A DNA stretch of 64,000 nt from Escherichia phage vB_EcoM_MM02. Positions 10,949 through 47,886 of this stretch are shown in pieces. The position numbers and the translations under genes were made by a program. How positions within the stretch are numbered: the stretch's first letter is position 1; every line of letters starts with the position of its first letter. The stretch lies in sequence record MK373784.1. One strand, written 5' to 3'. The notes under the pieces were generated by a model. The model was not told the DNA's origin, searched no databases, and saw only the letters and a list, made by a program, of their open reading frames with translations.

Positions 10949-11256
10949 CGTAAAGTCCCTGCAATTGGAATACTAACAATACGGCCTGTGTCCAGGATTC
11001 GTTGATACAATCTTTGCGTCTCCGCATCTAGTTTAATGTGTTTCATTTCAAGCTTATTAAACCAGAACTTACGCGGAGTTTCGACCATTCTTAGAACTCC
11101 CATTTTTAAATCTGTTTTATACTGTGTTTTCAAAGTATCGAAAACTTTATCTGCAATATCCTTTCTAAAAAATACTGCAGGACGATGCTCATCAAGTGGA
11201 ACCGGGACAGTAAATCCTTCCATATCTCGATAAACTATTGCATATACATAAACCAT
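10945..11256 (-). CDS. hypothetical protein (dda.1 position)
   Basis: 103-aa ORF overlapping dda start by 4 nt. Confidence 0.4.
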   Translation of the reverse strand: MVYVYAIVYRDMEGFTVPVPLDEHRPAVFFRKDIADKVFDTLKTQYKTDLKMGVLRMVETPRKFWFNKLEMKHIKLDAETQRLYQRILDTGRIVSIPIAGTLR

Positions 11257-11258
11257 AA

Positions 11259-12005
11259 TTAACCTTTAATCAGTTGGAATAATGATGCGCTAAGTGGTAA
11301 GCCACGTTTCAATTTTAATTTACCAATGAAACCAATCTTTTCAAAACGTTGCAGACCTTGGATAACTTTATCATATGTATCGAAAAGCGATTCAGCGTCA
11401 GTTAATTTAGTTTTAGTTTTCCAGTCAGAGCCTTTAAGAAGAACGTTGAGTTTAGTAAGTTCATGGCCTTCTGCTTGATGTGAGCCATTAATGCGTGCTT
11501 TCAAAGCAACAATTCTAAGTTTAGATTCGTTAGATAAAGGTTGATTTTTCATCATGTTCGCCATATGCTTAACACGATTTTCACGTTTTGCTCGGATTTT
11601 TAAAATAGTATCATAAACCTTTTTAATTTGGGCCCATTTCTTCTCGTCGAGATTAAGTTTCTCTACTTTACGGGCAGAAGGATTAGCGATACGTCTTGCA
11701 ATGGCATCACGTTTCACAATAAGTTCTTCTAATGTTAAATCAGAACGAGCCGTGTTATATTTTTTCTTAACTGGGATAACATTACCTTTAATGTAGCCGA
11801 TATCGTTATTAAAACGTTCTAAGGATAATTTCTCACCTTCAACAGAGTTATTAAAAGATTCACCTGAGTAAGCGCAGACCTTTTGATCAAGAATGTTTTT
11901 AAGGTAATTAAAGTCTAAGTTAAAATCCTTAGAGCGTCTCTTCGCAGAAGCTCTGGTGTGGTCAAGACGACGATTGATTTTGTTAATTTTATTATTTGAT
12001 AACAT
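11259..12005 (-). CDS. hypothetical basic protein (srd position)
   Basis: 248 aa, Lys/Arg-rich; sits where T4 has srd between dda and modA; no motif recognised. Confidence 0.4.
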   Translation of the reverse strand: MLSNNKINKINRRLDHTRASAKRRSKDFNLDFNYLKNILDQKVCAYSGESFNNSVEGEKLSLERFNNDIGYIKGNVIPVKKKYNTARSDLTLEELIVKRDAIARRIANPSARKVEKLNLDEKKWAQIKKVYDTILKIRAKRENRVKHMANMMKNQPLSNESKLRIVALKARINGSHQAEGHELTKLNVLLKGSDWKTKTKLTDAESLFDTYDKVIQGLQRFEKIGFIGKLKLKRGLPLSASLFQLIKG

Positions 12006-14987: not shown

Positions 14988-15224
14988 TTAACCACTTACT
15001 GGTGTAGGGGTAAACATTGCAGCGTTCTTAGTTTTCCAGTCAGCTGCATCAGAAACTACAGTAGAATAAGCTGCCTTTTCTGATGGAAAGATTTGGTAAT
15101 GAGAATCTGCAATCCGATGTTCGTTTGAATAAATCTCAAACGGCACAGAAACTTCCATACCTTTAACTTCTTTACCTTCACCAGCAGGATGCGTAAAGGT
15201 TTTGATGTTTACATAACCACCCAT
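14988..15224 (-). CDS. soc: small outer capsid protein Soc
   Basis: 78 aa; GYVNIKTF...HYQIFPSEKAAYSTV matches my memory of T4 Soc; late-promoter motif upstream, terminator downstream. Confidence 0.8.
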   Translation of the reverse strand: MGGYVNIKTFTHPAGEGKEVKGMEVSVPFEIYSNEHRIADSHYQIFPSEKAAYSTVVSDAADWKTKNAAMFTPTPVSG

Positions 15225-15255
15225 AATTAACTCCTTTGTTGTTTAATTACAGGTG

Positions 15256-15263
15256 TATTTATA
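15256..15263 (-). promoter_or_regulatory. T4-type late promoter motif (TATAAATA) upstream of soc
   Basis: Plus strand reads tatttata, the reverse complement of TATAAATA, about 30 nt upstream of the soc start. Confidence 0.5.
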
Positions 15264-15269
15264 ACTTAA

Positions 15270-15791
15270 TCAGTAACCATTATCCTGGCGTTCAAAGTTG
15301 TGTTGGTTTTTCAAGTAGTAAAGTTTGAAGATTTCTTCAGCAGAAAGACCCAGACCTTGGAACATGTTCAGAACGAAGTGCAGAATATCAATCATTTCGA
15401 ATTTAATTTCGAGCTGGTCTTCAGGAGACAGTTCATCAATACGACGATTACGATATTCAGCATGTTGTGCTTTCCATGGCTTCCATACACTGCTGGCAGC
15501 TTTTTCACCGTTGGACATACCACCAAGTGAAGTCAGCAGTTCACGGAATTCATCATCAATATAATCTTTCTGATTACGCAGCCAATCAACAACATCGCCA
15601 GCAGTAGCCAATTCATCAGGATGTTTGTTATGTTCAGGCTTGTCATTTGCCAGACGAACCTGTAAAGATTTCTGCATATCAAGCATTACCTGCAGTGGGT
15701 CTTTATCTTCGTGAATCAGAGCATTAAAATAAGCTTCTTCTGCTTTATCAACACCAGAAATAAGTTGTGAACATTCGTTAAAGTGCGCCAT
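15270..15791 (-). CDS. 56: dCTP pyrophosphatase (MazG-like), gene 56
   Basis: Track start is a TTG 5 codons upstream; ATG at about 15791 has RBS AAAGGAAAAATAATG; about 173 aa; position between soc and 61 as in T4. Confidence 0.65.
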   Translation of the reverse strand: MAHFNECSQLISGVDKAEEAYFNALIHEDKDPLQVMLDMQKSLQVRLANDKPEHNKHPDELATAGDVVDWLRNQKDYIDDEFRELLTSLGGMSNGEKAASSVWKPWKAQHAEYRNRRIDELSPEDQLEIKFEMIDILHFVLNMFQGLGLSAEEIFKLYYLKNQHNFERQDNGY

Positions 15792-15880
15792 TATTTTTCC
15801 TTTCAATTCAGTATAAGAGAGTTTAATTCTAACATTAATTTTATAAAGCGTAATAAATAATAGGTAACTAAGGAGATATT

Positions 15881-16078
15881 ATGTTTAAACTTCCATCGTT
15901 AATCAACGCTATTAAAGGCAATAAAAAGAAAACTGCTATCGCTGCAATAGTTGTAGGTGGCATTATTTCATGGAACTTCGGGATTGCACCATTGTTAGTT
16001 GCCCATGGTATTATAGTTCCTTCTGTTCCATTGGATACTGTAGTTGATTTGGCCTTTGCTATTATAGGGCTTGTTTAA
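15881..16078 (+). CDS. small hydrophobic protein (plus strand)
   Basis: 65 aa; strong AGGAG RBS 6 nt before ATG; predicted membrane helices; only convincing plus-strand gene in the window. Confidence 0.4.
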   Translation: MFKLPSLINAIKGNKKKTAIAAIVVGGIISWNFGIAPLLVAHGIIVPSVPLDTVVDLAFAIIGLV

Positions 16079-17097
16079 ATCTTCGAATAACGAGATAATC
16101 TCATTTTAGCATGCAACCCACTTGAAATATTCTGTTTCATATATTCTAAAATTTCTTGTGGTGTTGCATTTTCTTTCATTACCATATCATTCACATCCTT
16201 TGATCTCCATGGAGCTCGGTCCCAGAACATGACACGTTCGCCTGCATCAACTAATCGCTTCATGCGAGCTATAGTATCCGGATGCCTAGGTTCATTATCC
16301 ATTACCCATACCCGACGTTCTTTAAATGGTACCACATCTAAATCTATTGAGCCGCCTGTAATAGCGATTGCATTGGGTATGAATAAACTATCAATAGGGC
16401 CTTCCATTACCCAGACGTCTCCTTCCTTAACACGTTCAACACCATAAATTTTTGTTGCAGACTCAAACGCTTTAATAGTGATATATTTCTGAGGAGCATC
16501 TTTACGAAGTGCACGTCCTTGGAATGACTCGGCCTTCCCATCTTTATTAAAAATAGGAATAACTAAACGTGGTTCGGGAATCTCTTTCTTATACGTACCA
16601 GGTTGAATCTTGTTGACCAATTTGGGCCATTCTAATGTGAACCATAATCTGTTCCATGATTCTTTAGGAATGCATCTAGACTTAACATATTTAACAATAG
16701 GATGCTCTTCAGGCAACTTGTCCAGACGAGAACAAGACGGCAAAGAATTTATAGTCTTTTTCTCCGGTTCTGGTTTATGTTCAGGAACCTTTTCAATCTT
16801 TGGTTCCATTCTAGCTTTTTCTTTACGAACTTCCATTAGATATTCGCGATAAAGCTCTTCATCATACTCTTTTAAGTATCCGGAAATTGTATTGTGGTAT
16901 TGACAGTTATAGCAATGTACATTACCAGGAGTACCGCCATAATACCATCCGCGAGCTTTCATTGCATCTGTCTGGGAGTCGCCACAAACTGGACATCGAA
17001 ATGTTAATTTAAATGTGCTTGAATTATTGATTTGTCTAAAACGAGGTAGGTGAGAAAACGCACGATAAGCAAATTCATTATCTATCCATTCAGCCAT
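16075..17097 (-). CDS. 61: DNA primase, gene 61
   Basis: 340 aa; zinc ribbon CPVCGD...CYNCQYH; TOPRIM-like region; size and position as T4 gp61. Confidence 0.8.
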   Translation of the reverse strand: MAEWIDNEFAYRAFSHLPRFRQINNSSTFKLTFRCPVCGDSQTDAMKARGWYYGGTPGNVHCYNCQYHNTISGYLKEYDEELYREYLMEVRKEKARMEPKIEKVPEHKPEPEKKTINSLPSCSRLDKLPEEHPIVKYVKSRCIPKESWNRLWFTLEWPKLVNKIQPGTYKKEIPEPRLVIPIFNKDGKAESFQGRALRKDAPQKYITIKAFESATKIYGVERVKEGDVWVMEGPIDSLFIPNAIAITGGSIDLDVVPFKERRVWVMDNEPRHPDTIARMKRLVDAGERVMFWDRAPWRSKDVNDMVMKENATPQEILEYMKQNISSGLHAKMRLSRYSKI

Positions 17098-23865: not shown

Positions 23866-24414
23866 TTAACGAGCCCATTTGATAATTTCTGTAATCAAAT
23901 AATTACGTTCGCTTGCATTAAATCCTATAACTTTGTTAGCACCATCATGATTAAGTAATTGATACGTTTGGATTTTGTTATGAATTGCAAACTCTTCAAA
24001 ATGTGAAATGACTGTATTAAAACCGAATGAAGACAAAGTAATAAGGTCGTCTTCAAAACTTTCAGTCATTTCGTTACGTGTTAAAATAATTGTGAACACA
24101 TCATGGTTTTGGCAAAGACGAACATAATCCTGTTCATAAACGTCAAGAACCGAGTCCGTATCTTGTCGAATACGTCCATAAACCCAGTTACTAATATATC
24201 CACGGTCTAACAGATAAATCTTAGTAGGGTCTAAATAATTCAACATCGTTTCGAAGCAGCCAACTTCATTTCGAGACTTAACATCGAAACGCCCATCAAC
24301 TGTTCGTTTAGGGAAATCAATCTTTACATATCTTTCACTAATTTCCATTATGTCATTAATGAAAGTTGTTTTACCAGCATTATCTGGGCCATCTACTAAA
24401 ATAATTTTAGCCAT
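23866..24414 (-). CDS. P-loop kinase (nucleoside/nucleotide or sugar kinase-like)
   Basis: 182 aa; Walker A ILVDGPDNAGKTT and LDRGY motif as in dNK/TMPK or gluconate/shikimate-kinase-type P-loop kinases; occupies the T4 beta-gt slot. Confidence 0.5.
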   Translation of the reverse strand: MAKIILVDGPDNAGKTTFINDIMEISERYVKIDFPKRTVDGRFDVKSRNEVGCFETMLNYLDPTKIYLLDRGYISNWVYGRIRQDTDSVLDVYEQDYVRLCQNHDVFTIILTRNEMTESFEDDLITLSSFGFNTVISHFEEFAIHNKIQTYQLLNHDGANKVIGFNASERNYLITEIIKWAR

Positions 24415-24415
24415 T

Positions 24416-25315
24416 TTATTCCTCGATTACGACATCTTCATATTTAGGTATATTATACGGCGAAGAAATTAAAGCATTAAAGTAGATGAACTCACCAAGA
24501 CCTGGATGGAATACTTCTTCAGGATTTTCGAAATATTGAATCTTCGGACGTCCTTTAAGAATTTGATAGTACTCAGTTTTAGTTGGTTTAAAAATTCGAA
24601 TCAGCGCTTCTTCAGGATACTTATTTCTGTCGAAGCTATTATTTGGATCGGTTATATAAAGCGGTTGACCTAATTGAATTGCGCATTCAACAACTTGTTC
24701 AAAACGATAGCATGGGTCACTAATTCGAAATGGATGAAAAATACCATCTAGATAAATAGGAGCCAAATCACCTACAAGACGCTGCATGATGGAAGGACGT
24801 ATAACTTTCTGCGTTACGATAATCTTATTACCATCTGCACCTGCGTTAACCAGCACTTCTTTTTGACGTTCATTCAACACAGTAGTTTGAAGTGAACGAT
24901 TAACCGACAACATATCAGTTTTTAAGAATTCGTCAATATAAAAACGTGGTTTATTAGGGTCTGCAGTGATATTGAAATTGAATTCCACATCAAAAGCGCC
25001 GTCATATCCAGTGATATCTGTGATTAGAAAATCACAATCATAATAAGCAATTAATGAATCAACTACAAATTCATTTTCAGACCAGAAATATTTACGAGTG
25101 TTATACGCGTTATCTTTATACCATAATGGAACAAACTTAAATTCTGGAAAAAGACGTTCGCATTCTTTAATATCAGATGCATTACGTGGATATGTAATCA
25201 CATCACCCGGATTAGCACGGTGCAAATGAAGTTGGAAGTTGCCATCCTTAAGGATAGCATACTGTCCAGTTTCATAAGACCGCATACTCAAGATTGGTAC
25301 GCGGAAAATAGCCAT
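24416..25315 (-). CDS. hypothetical protein (beta-gt slot, no similarity recognised)
   Basis: 299 aa; translationally coupled with neighbours. Confidence 0.4.
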   Translation of the reverse strand: MAIFRVPILSMRSYETGQYAILKDGNFQLHLHRANPGDVITYPRNASDIKECERLFPEFKFVPLWYKDNAYNTRKYFWSENEFVVDSLIAYYDCDFLITDITGYDGAFDVEFNFNITADPNKPRFYIDEFLKTDMLSVNRSLQTTVLNERQKEVLVNAGADGNKIIVTQKVIRPSIMQRLVGDLAPIYLDGIFHPFRISDPCYRFEQVVECAIQLGQPLYITDPNNSFDRNKYPEEALIRIFKPTKTEYYQILKGRPKIQYFENPEEVFHPGLGEFIYFNALISSPYNIPKYEDVVIEE

Positions 25316-26031
25316 TAGTCAAGGAATCCTTTAACATAATCAAAATCACGTTCAAACACATGGGCACTTACCATGGTATGAGTATAAACACCAACTTCTA
25401 CACCGCATTCGTTAGCGATATAATGAAGTAATTTTCCTTGGAGATAAAAATCCAACTGCATAACAACAGCACAGTTCTGGGAACGCATATGACAGTGGGT
25501 ATAAAGCTTACCATCACGAATATAATAAGTCACTGAGTCAGTACATGGATATTCAAGCGTTTCGTCCGAATCAAGCAAAGCCTGATCAGAACTTTCTAGA
25601 ATTTGGAACACAACTCTTCGAGAGTTAGGCTTCTCTTTAAGTTCTTTTAGAAGAGCTGGTAATTGGGCCACAATGCGAGGACCATAGAAAGTGTTGAAGT
25701 TCGCCGGCAAAACATCTGATTTTGGTTTAGAAATAAATTTAGCGACATTAGGATATGCCTTAAACGCTTCTTCTGCATCAGTACCACCAGAAATCATAAA
25801 CTTCCAGAAGTCTTCGGCATATTCATAAGAGATGCGGTTAATACGTGGGTCGGTCATTTTGAATGATGATGGAGTGTCAACAACTACTGTCATAGACCCA
25901 ATTTCATTACAACGTCCAATACGAGAATCAGTTACGAATTCCGGGTTTTCTAAAATTTCACGATTGACTGCTTTAAATGCGGTTTGAAAATCTGCGGCTT
26001 TGATATATTTCATTGTGTTATGTTTTCCCAT
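25315..26031 (-). CDS. 42: dCMP hydroxymethylase (thymidylate-synthase fold), gene 42
   Basis: 238 aa; TS-family features (...LEYPCTDSV... with candidate catalytic Cys, C-terminal HVFERDFDYV); size and position as T4 gp42. Confidence 0.7.
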   Translation of the reverse strand: MGKHNTMKYIKAADFQTAFKAVNREILENPEFVTDSRIGRCNEIGSMTVVVDTPSSFKMTDPRINRISYEYAEDFWKFMISGGTDAEEAFKAYPNVAKFISKPKSDVLPANFNTFYGPRIVAQLPALLKELKEKPNSRRVVFQILESSDQALLDSDETLEYPCTDSVTYYIRDGKLYTHCHMRSQNCAVVMQLDFYLQGKLLHYIANECGVEVGVYTHTMVSAHVFERDFDYVKGFLD

Positions 26032-26073: not shown

Positions 26074-26313
26074 TTATTTGAATTTCTTGACAATGTTGAT
26101 ATAACGTAAAGCTTCAGCATCGATACTTCCAAGAACACTATGAAGAAATGCATCAGCGTAGTATTCCAATTGAACAGGTTCTTTAATCACTTTAGCCGCT
26201 TTGGTTTCAAACAGGCCCATCAGGGCCTTTTTAAGAATTTGTTCGTTAGTGTTCAGTTTAATAGTCAAAATCTCTTCATTAAGTTGGTGGTTAAAAGTTT
26301 TTCTAGAAATCAT
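26074..26313 (-). CDS. hypothetical protein
   Basis: 79-aa ORF. Confidence 0.35.
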   Translation of the reverse strand: MISRKTFNHQLNEEILTIKLNTNEQILKKALMGLFETKAAKVIKEPVQLEYYADAFLHSVLGSIDAEALRYINIVKKFK

Positions 26314-27488
26314 TCCGGGTACCTCAAAGCGTCATCAGAGTTAGTTATATCAATAATAGATATAGAGTTTTCTGCTAACCCGTTTTTAGACAATTGACGT
26401 TTATAATATCTTTCACAATATGTACACGTCGTCCCGCAGATTTCATTAGCACAATCGAAATCTGGATGTCTGAACCACCTTTTTTCTAAAAAGCCATCTA
26501 ACAAAGAGGTTTCAATATTTACTGTATGTGAAAACTCAGTTTCGTTTTCAAGAGTGAAAATAGTCTCTAAAGGCTTCCACAGTTCTAACAAATTACCTTC
26601 AAACTTTTCAGAAGCGTATGCTTCAAGAACTTTCAAAATGTAGTCTGTGCTACCTGTACGTCCTGAAACTTTGAATTGAGTGATACCAATATCATTATAA
26701 AGTTTCAAATCTTGAGGACGAACAAAACGAGTTCTCAACCAGTTAAATGGGTCTGTATCACGAGCTTTAATACAGTGCTGCATTGGATAACCGTTTAAGG
26801 ATTTAGCATCGTCAGCTGTAACATCAGTACTATGGAAAATATAGCAAGAGTCACGATAGCTACAATGTGTTGTATACCCTTTACCAGCATTAGAACAGAA
26901 CTCATTTACAAGAACTTCAAATATTATATTGTTCTTATTGCAAAACTCTGCTGCACGCTTCAGGAAAGAAACTGAACGGTTCTTATGAATTCCGCAGCAG
27001 ACCTTTTTGATATTATATTGGTCATGCAAGTATTTGATTTGAGTTACAGCATCGACATGTAGAATTGTTGAAACTTCAATCTCAATATCTTTATTGACTT
27101 CACGAACAATTTCCATAACAACAGGGTTAGCGATAGTAATACGCCATACGCCTATTGACCAAAGATACTGAACATAATCCTGAATAGCTTTCTTCTTCCA
27201 CTCAACTAGTTCTCTTTTTGAACCAGGATTTATCGTGTTGAGTGTATAGTTAAAGCAAATACCTAATTCGTTACAACGTTTAACGTAGTCTTCTAACATC
27301 TTTTTGTCAACGTCAGGAAGCCTAAAATCAGGTCTGGCTGCTACAAAAGCCATTTTTCTTGTAGAGCCGTATACTTCGTTTATCAAGCTATTAGGATAAG
27401 TTTTATTGAGCTCTACGATTTTATCAAGAAGAGCTAAATCAAAATTCGTTCCAATTTTAAAAGTATTCATTTTTTTTTTGCATCTCAC
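26310..27488 (-). CDS. Cys-rich protein of unknown function with C-terminal CxxxCxxC cluster
   Basis: 392 aa; cysteines at ...EFCSNAGKGYTTHCSYRDSC... and C-terminal CANEICGTTCTYC; family not assignable from sequence alone. Confidence 0.45.
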   Translation of the reverse strand: MRCKKKMNTFKIGTNFDLALLDKIVELNKTYPNSLINEVYGSTRKMAFVAARPDFRLPDVDKKMLEDYVKRCNELGICFNYTLNTINPGSKRELVEWKKKAIQDYVQYLWSIGVWRITIANPVVMEIVREVNKDIEIEVSTILHVDAVTQIKYLHDQYNIKKVCCGIHKNRSVSFLKRAAEFCNKNNIIFEVLVNEFCSNAGKGYTTHCSYRDSCYIFHSTDVTADDAKSLNGYPMQHCIKARDTDPFNWLRTRFVRPQDLKLYNDIGITQFKVSGRTGSTDYILKVLEAYASEKFEGNLLELWKPLETIFTLENETEFSHTVNIETSLLDGFLEKRWFRHPDFDCANEICGTTCTYCERYYKRQLSKNGLAENSISIIDITNSDDALRYPE

Positions 27489-27529: not shown

Positions 27530-27931
27530 TTATAGATTAGGTTTATATGATTTAAATGTTTCGAATCCGCCTTTATTCATAAGAGCTTTGAATTCGTCAG
27601 GACGCATAGCTTTGTCGTCGATAATCCAATCATATACTGGTTTATGTGTTAGCAAATTATGGTACTTCAAACCAATGTTTTCCAAGTTCTGAATCAGACT
27701 TGGGAGAATGTCAATTGCTATACGTCCAGGACCTACTGACTTCATACCGCGAGCAGTGTAAAGCGTTATGGTATGCCCTGCATCATACAGGGCATTAATG
27801 GCAGACACCATTTCGACGTCCGGTTTGAAGTTCACGTAATCACGATTGTTATTCCACTCTGTTATACAATCATCGACATCAAAACAAAGATTAAGCATGT
27901 TTTCTACACGGTGCATTAGATTCGTTCCCAT
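27530..27931 (-). CDS. HAD-superfamily phosphatase (KdsC-like small sugar-phosphate phosphatase)
   Basis: 133 aa; motif I FDVDDCIT (DxDx[T/V]), Thr motif ITLYTAR, C-terminal K...DD (HKPVYDWIIDDK). Confidence 0.55.
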   Translation of the reverse strand: MGTNLMHRVENMLNLCFDVDDCITEWNNNRDYVNFKPDVEMVSAINALYDAGHTITLYTARGMKSVGPGRIAIDILPSLIQNLENIGLKYHNLLTHKPVYDWIIDDKAMRPDEFKALMNKGGFETFKSYKPNL

Positions 27932-29601
27932 TGATGAGTGATATCGCCACCGATTGGACGATAGGAAACACCAGTTTCTTTATCAGTTAGTACCCATTTA
28001 CCAGGATTTTTTGTAATCAGAGTAGCCGTTACAGGTTCTGCTACGTCATAACTAATAGAGCCGTCTTGAAGTACACGGCCCATGTTACGTAATTGCTTAG
28101 TCAGAAGTTCCATACCTTTATAATATGCGGCTACCGCTTTAAGTGGATTATTCTTGAAATAACCACCTAATGCAATCCAGATAATTGCTACAGCCAAATG
28201 ATGATACTCGTTAAACGAACTCATCTTTCCATATTTGTAAACTAATGGATTGATGTTAATAGTCACATTACAAGTTGTTTCGTCAATAGTAAACTGTCCC
28301 CAGGTCGGATTAGCGTTGAATTCATCATAACCTGAAACAGCATAAAGCACTTTAGCTTCATCATACAATTTTGGCCCATAAATCTTGGTTTCGCCAAAAT
28401 ATCCACGAGGGTCGATAAACTTGACTTCGCCGTTATCAGTAATCATAGTATTACTGAAGTTCGGGTCACCATGAATAACAGAGTACTGTCCCTGAGAACG
28501 GTTATGATAACGAATAAGGTGTTCTAAAGCTTGTTTCAACATTGGCTTCAGACGTCCAATCTTAGTGTAGTTCACATGTGTGATTTTACCAAATGAATCA
28601 ATCAATGGTTGAATGCTTTCACAACGATCAATAACTTTCGTATAGAATTCTTTAGTGAAATCACGACGAACAGTTTCAGGACTTACAAAATAAGTGTCTG
28701 TGCTGAATTTCAGTGCATCTAAAATTGCATCAACAATTTGTGGACGAGCAAGACTTGATTTGGATTTAATATATTCAAATGCCGGCTTACCTTTAATGCG
28801 TTCCATTTCAAAGTTATTTTCATTAACAGAAACTAACTGAGGAACTGAATCTGATTTCACTTTAAGATACCATGAAATCTCATCTTTCTGAAGAGCTCGA
28901 CCCTGTTCGGTTAATGCGAATTTAGTTACAGTTTCTTCACCAATTTCAACTGCATTAAAACTACGATTAAGTTCACGAACTTCATGAGCTTTTTCAAGTT
29001 TAGGCATATCACCTAAATCAATTAGATTCATAAGCTCTGATTTATTGAATGCGCTGCCGTAAAGGAATTCTACGAAATCGCGTCCTTTGCAGTATTCATG
29101 AATTTCCTCATCGGTAGAACCCATATAGAATTCCCAGTCTTTGAACTGATAAATTCCTACAACATTACCACCTGTTGAACCTACGTTAGTGATATTTTCA
29201 CCGTCGAAATTATATCGACATTCGTCACCCTTAACATAGATTGCGTTAACATTCCAAGACCATGAACCAAAATCGGGAATAATATCACACCAGTTAACAA
29301 TTACATTATGGCCGTCTAAATCTTTGTGTAATTTAGCAAGAGCATAAGCAGAACCGTACGCTTCATCAACTGTACGAATAGTCACATTGAACCCTTCTTG
29401 CTCACAATAAGCTCGAACAGTTTCAGCAAATTTTGAATGAACTACTACAATAATTTCATCTGCGCCAAGGTCAGAATAAATTGTATACAAATTGCTCAGA
29501 ATAGTGTCTTGTTTATAGTTAACAAGCACCTTAGGAATATGATGCGTTATTGGATATAAACGAGTCGCCAGTCCAGCACCAAGAATAACAGCTTTTTTCA
29601 T
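27916..29601 (-). CDS. bifunctional sugar-1-phosphate nucleotidyltransferase / anomeric sugar kinase (APH-like)
   Basis: 561 aa; N-terminal NTP-transferase signature AVILGAGLATRLYP; C-terminal kinase motifs HGDPNFSNTMI...FIDPRG (Brenner HxDxxxxN plus DFG-like), as in AmgK/NahK-type kinases. Confidence 0.65.
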   Translation of the reverse strand: MKKAVILGAGLATRLYPITHHIPKVLVNYKQDTILSNLYTIYSDLGADEIIVVVHSKFAETVRAYCEQEGFNVTIRTVDEAYGSAYALAKLHKDLDGHNVIVNWCDIIPDFGSWSWNVNAIYVKGDECRYNFDGENITNVGSTGGNVVGIYQFKDWEFYMGSTDEEIHEYCKGRDFVEFLYGSAFNKSELMNLIDLGDMPKLEKAHEVRELNRSFNAVEIGEETVTKFALTEQGRALQKDEISWYLKVKSDSVPQLVSVNENNFEMERIKGKPAFEYIKSKSSLARPQIVDAILDALKFSTDTYFVSPETVRRDFTKEFYTKVIDRCESIQPLIDSFGKITHVNYTKIGRLKPMLKQALEHLIRYHNRSQGQYSVIHGDPNFSNTMITDNGEVKFIDPRGYFGETKIYGPKLYDEAKVLYAVSGYDEFNANPTWGQFTIDETTCNVTININPLVYKYGKMSSFNEYHHLAVAIIWIALGGYFKNNPLKAVAAYYKGMELLTKQLRNMGRVLQDGSISYDVAEPVTATLITKNPGKWVLTDKETGVSYRPIGGDITHQWERI

Positions 29602-29782: not shown

Positions 29783-30418
29783 TCATTGTTCGCCTCGTAA
29801 CATGGCACCTAGTGCACCGCCTGGATGGAACTTAAGGAAATCATTAGAGGTAAATCCACGTTCAGACGAAAGGTTGATAGCGAACGTATCGATAAGCGCT
29901 AACAACAATGTAGTAGACATTGTCGGAGCTAAAGAGTTCTCGTCAACTTCTACCGCGATACCGGTGCAGAACGTATAATCAAAAAGAGCTTCGTATTCTT
30001 GTGGAATGTCAGGGTTACAATGTAACAGAATCTGTTTAACCTGAGGACGAATCATACGAAGATGTTTAGCAACACCTATCATTTCTTCAGTCTTACCAGA
30101 ACGACTGATGTGAACTAATACATCATTAGGTGCAATAAATCCTGCGTCACCATGAGAATAATGCCCGGTGTTCAAATACATGCTAGGAATACCTAGTGAA
30201 GCAAAAGTCTCGGAAGCTTTAGTTGCGATATTAGCATTCTTACCAACACCTGTAATAATTACCCGGCTTTCATAATTACTAAGTCCAGGGCGTCGAAGAG
30301 TTTCTAGAATAGCATTATAACGAGCAGGGTTTTGACTAATTACTTTAGCCATAGTGGCAAGAGATGAAGCTTGTTTTACGATTGCGTCAATAGCGATAGT
30401 AATAGGAGTAGTTTTCAT
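29783..30418 (-). CDS. SIS-domain sugar-phosphate isomerase (arabinose-5-phosphate isomerase KdsD/GutQ-like)
   Basis: 211 aa; SIS motifs ITGVGKNANIATKASETFASLGIP and HISRSGKTEE; no CBS domains. Confidence 0.7.
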   Translation of the reverse strand: MKTTPITIAIDAIVKQASSLATMAKVISQNPARYNAILETLRRPGLSNYESRVIITGVGKNANIATKASETFASLGIPSMYLNTGHYSHGDAGFIAPNDVLVHISRSGKTEEMIGVAKHLRMIRPQVKQILLHCNPDIPQEYEALFDYTFCTGIAVEVDENSLAPTMSTTLLLALIDTFAINLSSERGFTSNDFLKFHPGGALGAMLRGEQ

Positions 30419-44789: not shown

Positions 44790-45260
44790 TTAATCATGTT
44801 TCCACACCCCATCGCTATTTGACCAAAGTCGCTGATTATCTGATCCTCGCCAAAGCTTTTTAGTCGGAAGATTTTTCTCATACTTCCCATCAATAATAAC
44901 ATCAACATATTTAAGCATTTCTAGTTGTTTAATATCTTCAAACTTATATCCTGTCCACAACCAAATGCTTTTATTGGGATAAAGATTTTTTACTGTTTGA
45001 GCAATGCGATGAATAACATCTCGGTTATCAGGATAGAGAGGGTCTCCTCCGGTTATAGTTAATCCTTCTATATAATCATTATTCAAACATTCAATCAATT
45101 GTTCTAGTGTCTCTCCAGTGAATGGAGTACCATTTCTAGCATTCCATGTTGATTTATTATAACACCCTTCACATTTATGCAAACAACCTGTAACGAAAAG
45201 AACGACCCTGCATCCAGGGCCATTCACAAAATCGCAAGGATAAAATCTATCATAATTCAT
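44790..45260 (-). CDS. nrdG: anaerobic ribonucleotide reductase activating protein NrdG (radical SAM)
   Basis: 156 aa; CxxxCxxC in VTGCLHKCEGCYN. Confidence 0.85.
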   Translation of the reverse strand: MNYDRFYPCDFVNGPGCRVVLFVTGCLHKCEGCYNKSTWNARNGTPFTGETLEQLIECLNNDYIEGLTITGGDPLYPDNRDVIHRIAQTVKNLYPNKSIWLWTGYKFEDIKQLEMLKYVDVIIDGKYEKNLPTKKLWRGSDNQRLWSNSDGVWKHD

Positions 45261-47074
45261 TGGTGTTTAACCCTATGCATGATTTCTTTATTTTTACCGA
45301 GATTAAATCCGCGCTCGTTCGGATTTCCCAAATAGCCGCATGTTCTTCTTATAGTGTTCATCTTTTTAGGATCAGTTTCTCCACAAACTGAACAAACAAA
45401 TCCGTTTTCAGTAGGAGTCATCTCATGGGTACTTCCACATGTAAAACATTTATCTACTGGCATATTAACACCAAAATAATCTAAATGTTGTGCAGCATAA
45501 TCCCAGACAGCCTCGAGTCCCTTTAAATTGTTTTTCATATCAGGAAGTTCAACATAAGAAATGTGACCACCTGTCGCAATGAAATGATATGGCGCTTCAC
45601 GAGAAATCTTTTCAAACGGAGTAATATTTTCTTCTACTGAAACATGGAAACTATTAGTGTACCAGCCTTTATCGGTAACATCCTTTACATTTCCATATTT
45701 TTCTGTATCGAGTTTACAGAAGCGATAACAAAGGTTTTCAGCAGGAGTAGAATACAAACTAAAAGCAAATCCAGTTCTTTCGGACCACTGTTTAAGATGA
45801 GCATTCATTTTAGTTAAAATTTCTTGCCCAATATCACGACCGACAAGAATATTCAATTCGTGAATACCAATGTATCCTAAAGACACTGAACTTCTACCGT
45901 TTTTAAATAACTCAATTATGTCGTCATCAGGTTTAAGACGAACCCCGAATGCACCTTCTTGGTAAAGAATAGGAGCAACAGTAGCTTTAACTCCTTTTAA
46001 GGAACTAATTCTACACATCAAAGCTTCAAAACATAAATCCATTCGTTCATTGAATAATTCAACAAATTTCTGTTCGTTAAATTGCGTTCCAATATAAGAA
46101 TCTAACGCGATGCGAGGAAGATTCAATGTTACAACACCAAGATTATTGCGACCATCAAGAATTTCATTACCGGTCGAATCTTTCCATACGCTCAAGAAAC
46201 TACGGCAGCCCATTGGAGAAACAGGAACTGAAGAACCGGTAATAGCTTTATTATTCTTAACCGAAATAATGTCAGGATACATTCTTTTGCTTGCACATTC
46301 TAACGCAAGTTGTTTAATATCATAGTTCGGATCATCTTTATAAAGATTAACACCTTCTTCAACAAACATAACAAGTTTAGGAAAAATAGGAGTTATTCCA
46401 TCACGACCAAGACCTTTAATGCGGTTTTTAAGAATTGCCTTCTGAATCATTCGTTCGGTCCAGTCAGTTCCCGTACCAAATGTAATTGTTACAAAAGGCG
46501 TTTGTCCGTTTGAACTAAAGAGAGTATTTACTTCATATTCATAAGCTTGGAATGCATCGTATACATCTTTTTCTGTTTTGGATTGAGCATAATTCAACGC
46601 ATCAGCGATTTGCCATTTTTCTGCATCCTCAATATGTTTAGCGTATGTGCGTTTAACATAAGGAGAAAGAACTTTATCTACATTCGCAAATGTAGTTCCG
46701 CCATACTGGTGTGAAGCAACTTGTGCGGTAATTTGTGCCATAATTGCAGTAGCAACGCCAATAGATTTAGGCGTTTCAATTTGAGCATTGCCTAATTTAA
46801 ATCCATTCTCAAGCATTCCTTTTAAATCTACTAAACAGCAATTAGTAAAAGGCAATGATATACTGTAATCTAAATCATGAAAATGAATTAATCCAACATT
46901 ATGGGCATTTACAATATGACTTGGAAGAATACGACAAGCGATATGTTTAGAAACAATACCGGCCATTAAATCTCTTTTTGTTGGAAAGACACGAGAATCT
47001 TTGTTGGCGTTTTCGGTATTTAATTCTTTATCTTTATTTGAAATAAAATTTAAAACATCTTTCTCTAAAGACAT
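45257..47074 (-). CDS. nrdD: anaerobic ribonucleoside-triphosphate reductase NrdD (glycyl radical enzyme)
   Basis: 605 aa; C-terminal Zn site CFTCGS...CSVCG and glycyl-radical motif RRTCGYLG; uninterrupted. Confidence 0.9.
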   Translation of the reverse strand: MSLEKDVLNFISNKDKELNTENANKDSRVFPTKRDLMAGIVSKHIACRILPSHIVNAHNVGLIHFHDLDYSISLPFTNCCLVDLKGMLENGFKLGNAQIETPKSIGVATAIMAQITAQVASHQYGGTTFANVDKVLSPYVKRTYAKHIEDAEKWQIADALNYAQSKTEKDVYDAFQAYEYEVNTLFSSNGQTPFVTITFGTGTDWTERMIQKAILKNRIKGLGRDGITPIFPKLVMFVEEGVNLYKDDPNYDIKQLALECASKRMYPDIISVKNNKAITGSSVPVSPMGCRSFLSVWKDSTGNEILDGRNNLGVVTLNLPRIALDSYIGTQFNEQKFVELFNERMDLCFEALMCRISSLKGVKATVAPILYQEGAFGVRLKPDDDIIELFKNGRSSVSLGYIGIHELNILVGRDIGQEILTKMNAHLKQWSERTGFAFSLYSTPAENLCYRFCKLDTEKYGNVKDVTDKGWYTNSFHVSVEENITPFEKISREAPYHFIATGGHISYVELPDMKNNLKGLEAVWDYAAQHLDYFGVNMPVDKCFTCGSTHEMTPTENGFVCSVCGETDPKKMNTIRRTCGYLGNPNERGFNLGKNKEIMHRVKHQ

Positions 47075-47886
47075 AATTCTAATTTATCCTTTTGAAATTC
47101 TTCGTCTAAATATGGGTTCCAACCCATTTTAAACCTTTTGATGAAATTATCAATTCTAAATTTCGGTAAGTTTAAATCCGCAAAAATAGATGATTTACTT
47201 TTAAAATCTGGACCTAAATAATCATATAAAATTTCTGCGTATTTTAACCATAATATACAAGTACCGGATTTAATTGCGTTCGGAGTTTTCCAAGGTTTTA
47301 CACCATACATCGGATTTCCACTTCCTTTATGCCTGATAGAAGATGAAATTCCAATTTTAATTTTAGCTTCCTTTGTATGCGAAAATCCACGATGCGGATT
47401 TTCTTTCCAGTATTTTTTAGAAGCTTCTGATATTTTCTTTCTGGCTAAATTAGTATGATGCTTTCCATAAAATCCATTATTTTTGCCTTTATTACGATTT
47501 CTTTTAATCATGGTTATTGATTGCTTTTCTCTAGTTTCTTTAGAAGGAGAAATACCATATGTCGTAAATTTGCCATCAGCATATGCTAAATTAAAATACT
47601 CTTTATTCCATACATCTTTTTCTATATTCTTTTGAAATTCAGCTTCAATGCTAGTTATTTGTTCATCTCCGACTAATTGAAAATATAATATTTCAACTTT
47701 CGGCGTTTCTTTCAATAAGGCTTTTTGAAATTCGGAAGATGACGAAGACGAATAATAAAATTTACCATTTTTATCAATAATATTCGTTCCATCAAAAGTG
47801 CAATTGGTTTTACTTCCAATGTAATAATATGGTGGGGTTTTAGCATTAATTCTATTAATAAATGATAGTTTATATACTACATTCAT
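47065..47886 (-). mobile_element. free-standing GIY-YIG homing endonuclease gene (Seg/I-TevI-like) with NUMOD3 repeats
   Basis: 273 aa; GIY-YIG core VYKLSF...PPYYYIGSKTN; NUMOD3-like repeats GKHHTNLARKKISEA, SHTKEAKIKIG; overlaps nrdD start by 10 nt. Confidence 0.7.

Follow-up and report, generated by a model that had tools for sequence, protein, structure and literature searches.

A probable oxygen-independent cytosine hydroxylase of the U32 family in the DNA-modification cluster of RB69-like coliphages

In a 64,000-nucleotide stretch of Escherichia phage vB_EcoM_MM02 (MK373784.1; hereafter the window), a minus-strand gene at 26310..27488, the orthologue of RB69 gp50 and called gp50 here, encodes 392 amino acids (aa) when read from a GTG start to a TGA stop. 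Our analysis suggests that gp50 is probably an O2-independent, prephenate-dependent C5 hydroxylase of a deoxycytidine nucleotide, with deoxycytidine monophosphate (dCMP) the most probable substrate, and thus a counterpart of gp48, the flavin- and O2-dependent enzyme encoded nearby. What the analysis shows is the family, the fold, which residues are conserved, which genes are linked, and the phyletic pattern; from these we infer the metal content of gp50, its use of prephenate, its O2 independence, its substrate, and the level, nucleotide or DNA, at which it would act. A sequence-only reading of this DNA had placed the 392-aa open reading frame (ORF) between a thymidylate synthase (TS) homologue ('gene 42') and sugar-nucleotide genes, and we find it exactly there. 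The region also encodes gp41, UvsX, and an RB69-type DNA polymerase, and the 6.7 kb surrounding gp50 are 98-99% identical to many Mosigvirus (RB69-like) coliphages.

RB69 DNA carries arabinosylated 5-hydroxycytosine (5hoC), not hydroxymethylcytosine (PMC13326640, Nucleic Acids Research 2026). In that work, the 'gene 42' homologue gp48 produces 5-hydroxy-dCMP, binds flavin, and takes its oxygen atom from O2, while UDP-arabinofuranose is made by the products of the SIS, nucleotidyltransferase/kinase (NT-kinase), and HAD genes. The RB69 counterpart of gp50 (RB69p050, NP_861740.1; 99.2% identical and annotated 'peptidase') belongs to the published cluster but appears only as a table entry, labeled 'sugar or heterocycle reductase' on a match to 5d88, and the text is silent on it; the discussion there describes the RNA pyrimidine-hydroxylation pathways of RlhA and TrhP as unrelated to gp48 and leaves the kinship of gp50 unmentioned. 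Earlier papers mention the gene only as having 'homologs among peptidases' or omit it from the text. Our literature search, which did not cover He et al. 2026 (HY126) or Mahler et al. 2025, found U32 proteins, prephenate, or chorismate mutase nowhere tied to phage 5hoC. Cells need RlhA (ho5C2501), TrhP (ho5U34), and UbiU/UbiV for hydroxylations that proceed without O2, all of them prephenate-dependent, with prephenate the oxygen donor for ubiquinone; U32 proteins use [4Fe-4S] clusters on a four-Cys motif common to most members, and in air the same steps have O2-dependent counterparts, namely TrhO for tRNA and UbiI/H/F for ubiquinone (PMC10990095, PMC6599085). Since C5 of cytosine is the sole hydroxylation in the pathway to arabinosylated 5hoC, and since RlhA-type U32 proteins carry out such ring chemistry without O2, we propose the same function for gp50.

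Whereas the sequence-only reading had assigned the protein to no known family, gp50 matches Pfam PF01136 (Peptidase_U32) at 42.2 bits, above the gathering cut-off of 22.4, over residues 100-292 of the 392-aa ORF, and nearly all of 120 gp50 homologues carry a precomputed match to the same family. An AlphaFold2 model built from 101 sequences (predicted local distance difference test, pLDDT, 93; predicted template modelling score, pTM, 0.91) is a beta/alpha barrel, in keeping with the TIM-barrel fold of U32 proteins. Among characterized proteins, the best profile match is Escherichia coli RlhA (hhalign, 85% probability); TrhP and UbiU reached 16% and 5.6%, and the UbiU equivalog NCBIfam NF047963 scored 18.4 bits against a cut-off of 440. 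The C-terminal regions of RlhA and TrhP are absent from gp50, which ends about 100 residues past the U32 core in a four-Cys tail. Searching the PDB by sequence with gp50 or its profile gave no meaningful match, only a single spurious one to BIM1. A profile of the gp50 clade retrieved 1,717 representatives among 1.84 billion (495 at E<=1e-30). On these profile comparisons, the clade is small and well separated from other U32 proteins, and gp50 is a U32 member outside every characterized subfamily, within a viral clade previously undescribed.

Cysteine makes up 3.4% of gp50 against a mean of 1.3% for the 46 same-strand ORFs, where it ranks second, below only the radical-SAM activase NrdG; this enrichment, which the sequence-only reading had noticed, is not due to chance. 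The three Cys strings singled out there are all present, at residues 351-358 (CGTTCTYC), 346-351 (CANEIC), and 197-215 (FCSNAGKGYTTHCSYRDSC) of the 392-aa ORF; residue numbers from here on refer to the 386-aa gp50 defined below unless marked otherwise. Aligning 121 gp50 homologues of 46-87% identity showed that C158, C192, C203, C209, C233, C340, C345, C349, and C352 are 100% conserved, so none of the nine has been lost in relatives, and C177 is 98% conserved. Residues 190-233 (26772..26903, minus strand) form the U32 motif region, with E190, C192, C203, C209, Y210, H213, and C233 invariant, and constitute a putative [4Fe-4S] site with a catalytic Glu. By hhalign, E190, C203, and C209 pair with E161, C169, and C176 of RlhA (E190-F-C192 facing E161-F-F, and C209-Y-I-x-H facing C176-Y-I-S-H); the Glu and Cys of this motif are essential in RlhA and TrhP (PMC6599085). 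In this register, gp50 departs from the family signature (E-x-F-x2-G-x-x-C-x4-G-x-C) by five inserted residues and a Cx5C spacing, and a second register, from MAFFT, sets GYPMQHC233 of gp50 against GYPTLC232 of UbiU. Since the two registers disagree, the exact ligand equivalences are uncertain, although four invariant Cys still surround the motif. A further four invariant Cys, C340-x4-C345-x3-C349-x2-C352 (26415..26453, minus strand), are modeled at pLDDT 94-96 and have no counterpart in an alignment with UbiU, UbiV, and TrhP; we regard them as a putative second site for Fe-S (or Zn), confined to the gp50 clade.

The sequence-only reading had weighed two enzyme types for these cysteines. Membership of the U32 family is upheld by Pfam and by the modeled fold. 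Radical SAM is rejected: gp50 has no PF04055 match, although NrdG of the same window does, its fold is U32, and its CX3CX2C (C345-C352) lies in the far C-terminal tail behind the barrel, with a fourth invariant Cys five residues upstream. Of that interpretation, then, the U32 assignment stood, while radical SAM, the lack of a known family, and a dCMP hydroxymethylase as neighbor did not; the RB69 orthologue of that neighbor makes 5-hydroxy-dCMP with flavin and O2 (PMC13326640).

Gene linkage was compared by iterated hidden Markov model (HMM) scans of 18 T4-like and 50 other U32 loci (numbered L001 upward where named). All 18 T4-like loci encode the glycosyltransferase GT1, the nucleotide kinase, and a TS-family protein, and 15 encode a chorismate mutase. 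Among the 50 other loci, 28 have GT1 within 6 kb of U32, 28 have the kinase, 15 the NT-kinase, and 12 the SIS gene, whereas a clear TS-family ORF lies within 10 kb of U32 only in L046, even at E<=1; L071 adds one marginal partial match at the locus end (E 0.0011). Of these other loci, 32 extend 6 kb or more to each side of U32; GT1 homologues occur in 21 of the 32, mostly immediately upstream of U32, and the homology is backed by PHROGs for L014-L016 (phrog_3891, E 3.5e-29 to 2.6e-14) and weaker for some others. Kinase, GT1, and TS without U32 are found in E. coli phage WG01 and in phages that infect Acinetobacter, Pseudomonas, and Rhizobium. These patterns therefore indicate one slot filled by TS alone, TS plus U32, or U32 alone. 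Elsewhere, U32 is linked to dCMP deaminase, dUTPase, NT5C, and deoxynucleoside kinase (dNK).

L046 (IMGVR_UViG_3300028591_000080, 230 kb) is the sole locus outside the T4-like group with both a TS-family gene and U32, and it also carries GT1, kinase, and NT-kinase; by its gene content, it is a jumbo-phage version of the dual TS/U32 arrangement.

Genes for prephenate supply recur beside U32. In both Enterobacter phage Entb_45 (Kanagawavirus) and Klebsiella phage PWKp16 (Marfavirus), a small gene that overlaps the stop codon of U32 and lies ahead of the TS homologue encodes an AroQ chorismate mutase (CM_2, 40.9 and 39.5 bits; cut-off 27). A chorismate mutase between U32 and the TS homologue was found in 51 phage records, whose hosts span about 12 genera (Klebsiella, Serratia, Yersinia, Enterobacter, Edwardsiella, Erwinia, Pectobacterium, Escherichia (EcS1), Shewanella, Providencia, Morganella, and Kosakonia). 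Uncultivated phages carry, near U32, either a stand-alone chorismate mutase (L018, L023/24, L061), a Bacillus-type 3-deoxy-D-arabinoheptulosonate 7-phosphate (DAHP) synthase (L014 at 11145-11891, L044, L029; DAHPS 237 bits vs KDO8PS 63), or a fusion of the two about 1-1.7 kb upstream of U32 (L021, L055, L057-L059). The PheA catalytic residues R11, R28, K39, S84, and Q88 are retained in all chorismate mutase domains. One of these genes adjoins U32 in 15/18 T4-like and 12/50 other loci (chorismate mutase in nine of the latter), and all share one output, flux to prephenate. Since prephenate-supply genes are linked to U32 and the TS-type hydroxylase is replaced by it in other phages, an oxygen-independent hydroxylase is the likely meaning of gp50.

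The phyletic pattern was compared with the oxygen lifestyle of the hosts. U32 was present in 221 phage records, each at least 80% identical to gp50 and each from a phage of Enterobacterales or Shewanella, while the TS homologue occurs in 373 phage records. Among records carrying the TS homologue, U32 was found in 0/57 from Acinetobacter, 0/20 from Rhizobium, and none of the others from Agrobacterium or Pseudomonas. In GTDB genomes, the contigs that carry members of the gp50 clade were assigned by binning to Erysipelotrichales, Oscillospiraceae, Romboutsia, Gastranaerophilaceae, Tannerella, Phocaeicola, Clostridium, and a few candidate phyla. By this pattern, U32 is missing where the phage host is an obligate aerobe, and it occurs in phages linked to facultative and to obligate anaerobes. 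As a control for lifestyle, NrdD was found in 2866 phage records, with Acinetobacter not among the top-ten genera, which is weakly informative.

Together, these findings suggest a mechanism in which gp50 would hydroxylate C5 of dCMP without molecular oxygen, prephenate donating the oxygen and the two Cys sets holding Fe-S clusters that remove two electrons. The product would be the 5-hydroxy-cytosine 'handle' that the neighboring glycosyltransferase arabinosylates. In hosts growing anaerobically, where flavin/O2-dependent gp48 would fail, gp50 would take over, and in many phages of anaerobes U32 may be the sole enzyme that forms 5-hydroxypyrimidine. We favor the dCMP level since the phage dCTPase destroys dCTP (PMC13326640 Table 1) and the nucleotide kinase almost always adjoins.

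Known systems offer close parallels. RlhA (YdcP), which acts on C2501 of E. coli 23S rRNA, shares with gp50 the family and the fold, its motif Glu and Cys pair align with those of gp50 in the hhalign register, and its prephenate-dependent, O2-independent C5 hydroxylation of cytosine is the chemistry that we propose. On the other hand, RlhA is a 653-aa protein with large C-terminal domains that modifies one rRNA nucleotide, whereas gp50 has 386 aa, a four-Cys tail, altered Cys spacing, a place in a DNA-modification cluster, and a proposed deoxynucleotide substrate. TrhP and TrhO (tRNA ho5U34) provide one hydroxylation within a single organism by an O2-independent U32/prephenate route and a separate O2-dependent route, as we suggest for gp50 and gp48, but their substrate is tRNA uridine and TrhO is a rhodanese, while gp48 is a TS homologue with flavin. 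UbiU-UbiV, likewise of the U32 family, bind [4Fe-4S] through four Cys, take the place of flavin/O2 hydroxylases under anaerobic conditions, and need prephenate; they hold two clusters in total, the number proposed for gp50 too, and GYPTLC232 of UbiU resembles GYPMQHC233 of gp50, yet the two clusters are divided between the subunits of a heterodimer, one in each, and the substrate is a lipid. The TS-type 5-hydroxy-dCMP synthases (RB69 gp48, DLP3 gp80, and the HY126 enzyme) have the product proposed for gp50 and occupy the same slot beside kinase and GT1, but have a thymidylate synthase fold, use flavin, and take their oxygen atom from O2, so that gp50 would be their analogue, independent of O2 and not orthologous to them. 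Mk0906 of Methanopyrus kandleri (PDB 5d88), a U32 protein, is 14% identical to gp50 over the barrel core only and lacks the C-terminal Cys tail.

Several observations weigh against this proposal. The Cys spacing of gp50 is non-canonical for U32 (Cx5C following the five inserted residues in one alignment, Cx10C in the other), its profile barely extends to cellular U32 proteins, and the published label for RB69p050 is a different one, the reductase quoted above. Direct hydroxylation by any U32 protein is still undemonstrated in vitro (PMC10990095), and the literature within our search contains no biochemical or genetic result on gp50. Chorismate mutase has been lost in Mosigvirus, the window's own group, and none is encoded in the window. 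Dhakavirus phages of E. coli do without U32, which is therefore dispensable for some phages of facultative anaerobes. The U32-only loci were covered to 10 kb per side, so that a TS-family gene could lie elsewhere in those genomes; in one U32-only IMG/VR contig, no TS-family ORF was found in 26 of its 44 kb. Finally, the hosts of the uncultivated phages were assigned by binning of metagenome-assembled genomes (MAGs).

We also considered that gp50 is a prephenate-dependent U32 enzyme with another substrate or product, such as dUMP, another base or position, cytosine in DNA, or other chemistry, and judge this unlikely. Some U32 loci pair the gene with dCMP deaminase or dUTPase/DCD, and some have a guanylate-kinase-methyltransferase fusion in place of the glycosyltransferase; the clade may therefore have more than one substrate, and whether the first glycosylation occurs on the nucleotide or on DNA was left undecided (PMC13326640). 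In RB69 DNA, however, arabinosylated 5hoC is the sole non-canonical base, with no second hydroxylated product known there, and the destruction of dCTP noted above favors pre-replicative supply in T4-like phages.

That gp50 is instead an RNA hydroxylase, a phage relative of RlhA and TrhP that would adjust translation in the infected cell by acting on tRNA or rRNA of the host or the phage, seems quite unlikely to us. T4-like phages encode tRNAs, RlhA is the best characterized profile match, and the RNA-level U32 precedents all act on polynucleotides, yet gp50 matches only the PF01136 core and lacks the extended C-termini that RlhA and TrhP have. Moreover, U32 is limited to phages with the 5hoC cluster (221 records vs 2866 with NrdD), and it is tied to kinase and GT1 homologues in unrelated phages and elsewhere to dCMP deaminase, dUTPase, NT5C, and dNK.

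We regard as very unlikely a role in the sugar branch, for example in making or modifying the nucleoside diphosphate (NDP)-arabinofuranose donor, or in reduction of a heterocycle, despite the location of gp50 between base-modifying and sugar-nucleotide genes and the reductase label in PMC13326640 Table 1. DLP3, Maestro, PspYZU05, and WG01 have the SIS/NT-kinase/HAD set without U32, and arabinosylated 5hoC is reported in U32-less DLP3 and Maestro, while many loci have kinase, GT1, and U32 without NT-kinase or SIS genes. Pentose chemistry offers no reason for U32 to be linked to chorismate mutase and DAHP synthase, and to our knowledge no U32 member acts on sugars.

A true, collagenase-like protease, as the Pfam family name and the 'peptidase' and 'collagenase-like protease' annotations of most GenBank records would have it, is extremely improbable, and we reject it on family knowledge and genomic context: characterized U32 members are Fe-S proteins for O2-independent hydroxylation, the residues that never vary are the motif Glu and the putative Fe-S ligands, and nucleotide metabolism is the setting of the gene in all loci.

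Beyond the hydroxylase proposed for gp50 itself, we tentatively extend the reading to the viral U32 clade as a whole (~500-1,200 clusters at 50% identity), and give this wider version slightly less than an even chance. Its members would be O2-independent hydroxylases of DNA precursors, an anaerobic twin of the flavin/O2 synthase in phages of facultative anaerobes and the sole source of a hydroxypyrimidine handle in many uncultivated phages of obligate gut anaerobes, and the handle would serve for glycosylation or, in a bacterial four-gene cassette, methylation; some phages would import DAHP synthase and chorismate mutase for prephenate.

This cassette consists of GP88 (PF17338), a guanylate-kinase-methyltransferase fusion, a protein of ~270 aa, and then U32 (L028, 3044-7137). 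It also occurs in L002, L003, L019, L025, L026, L027, and L066, and partly in L022, and in genomes and MAGs it spans distant phyla (Phocaeicola, Tannerella, Bacillota, BRC1, and an archaeal MAG). It could be a hydroxylate-then-methylate module for nucleotide or DNA modification. PADLOC matched no known defense system to the cassette, to gp50, or to the 79-aa ORF downstream of gp50 in the window. L002 (13227-14360), L003, and L019 have another U32 gene, a strongly diverged paralogue (23% identity) that lies 5 kb downstream of the first copy; it is surrounded by genes for NT5C, a nicotinamide mononucleotide (NMN) transporter, dNK, a radical-SAM/SPASM protein, and a nucleoside deoxyribosyltransferase, and adjoins a dockerin-bearing GH43 gene. 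Radical-SAM/SPASM genes lie within a few kb of U32 in unrelated loci (L001, 1-249; L017, 7972-9000; L002, 12160-13185). In L015, a U32-only phage, a T4-alpha-glucosyltransferase-like gene (TAGT, weak match; 11098-12000) directly follows U32, and a UDP-galactopyranose mutase gene (GLF; 15073-16179) lies 4 kb beyond, a set that recalls the galactofuranosyl-5hoC in the DNA of Rhizobium phage RL38J1.

In the window, gp50 probably starts not at GTG 27488 but at ATG 27470, giving a U32-family gene of 386 aa at 26310..27470 (minus strand). We prefer this start since homologues begin with MNTFK, the PHROG profile begins at residue 6, and the RB69 record aligns over residues 1-386 at 99.2%. The GTG-extended ORF contains a run of ten A (27470-27479, minus strand) that ends in this ATG; a role as contingency loci in phages has been proposed for homopolymer tracts.

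The genes around it lie on the same minus strand. Downstream are a 79-aa ORF (26074..26313; RB69 ORF049c family, phrog_8601), with its ATG and the stop codon of U32 sharing bases (ATGA), the TS homologue (25315..26031; Pfam Thymidylat_synt), which is the gp48 orthologue and hence the O2/flavin-dependent 5-hydroxy-dCMP synthase (PMC13326640), GT1 (24416..25315; gp46:47 orthologue, phrog_3891), the putative first DNA arabinosyltransferase, and the thymidylate-kinase-like nucleotide kinase (23866..24414; gp45 orthologue, phrog_761), the last two listed in PMC13326640 Table 1. Upstream are an AfhF-like HAD-type phosphatase (27530..27931; gp51, PHROG match), an AfhE-like bifunctional nucleotidyltransferase/kinase (27916..29601; gp52:53, with Pfam NTP_transferase and kinase-like matches), both described in PMC13326640, and a SIS-domain arabinose-5-phosphate isomerase (29783..30418; gp55, Pfam SIS, phrog_5670). 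The ORFs at 24416-25315 and 27916-29601 are single and intact (299 and 561 aa), whereas both are split in the RB69 reference (gp46/47 and gp52/53), in agreement with the published statement that the RB69 splits are sequencing errors. The 79-aa ORF, syntenic with the chorismate mutase genes of Kanagawavirus and Marfavirus, matches neither CM_2 nor any other Pfam or NCBIfam family, and we reject it as a degenerate chorismate mutase (no HMM match; hhalign against phage chorismate mutases, 0.1% probability). Its family occurs in Mosigvirus and, beside a real chorismate mutase, in Yersinia, Pectobacterium, and Serratia 92A1 phages; its product might be a partner of the U32 protein. Farther along, also on the minus strand (44790-47074; 47065-47886), come genes for the 4Fe-4S/radical-SAM activase NrdG and for NrdD, the anaerobic ribonucleotide reductase (571 bits), then a 273-aa ORF with a NUMOD3 motif (homing-endonuclease-like) and endonuclease VII. 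With NrdD and NrdG, the phage already duplicates one O2-sensitive step of DNA-precursor synthesis.

If the role proposed for gp50 is correct, RB69-like coliphages and many gut phages could fully substitute cytosine in the anoxic intestine, where the flavin/O2 enzyme, the sole 5-hydroxy-dCMP synthase known, should fail. Chemistry with prephenate as the oxygen donor, so far a genetic inference for ubiquinone and two RNA positions, would extend to DNA precursors and to viruses, and with soluble dCMP as its substrate, gp50 would be the first U32 hydroxylase open to in vitro reconstitution. The DAHP synthase and chorismate mutase genes in phage genomes would gain a clear role. A large, unstudied set of anaerobe phages would then be likely carriers of glycosylated hydroxypyrimidine DNA, which would bear on restriction and CRISPR evasion, sequencing, and engineering of gut phages.

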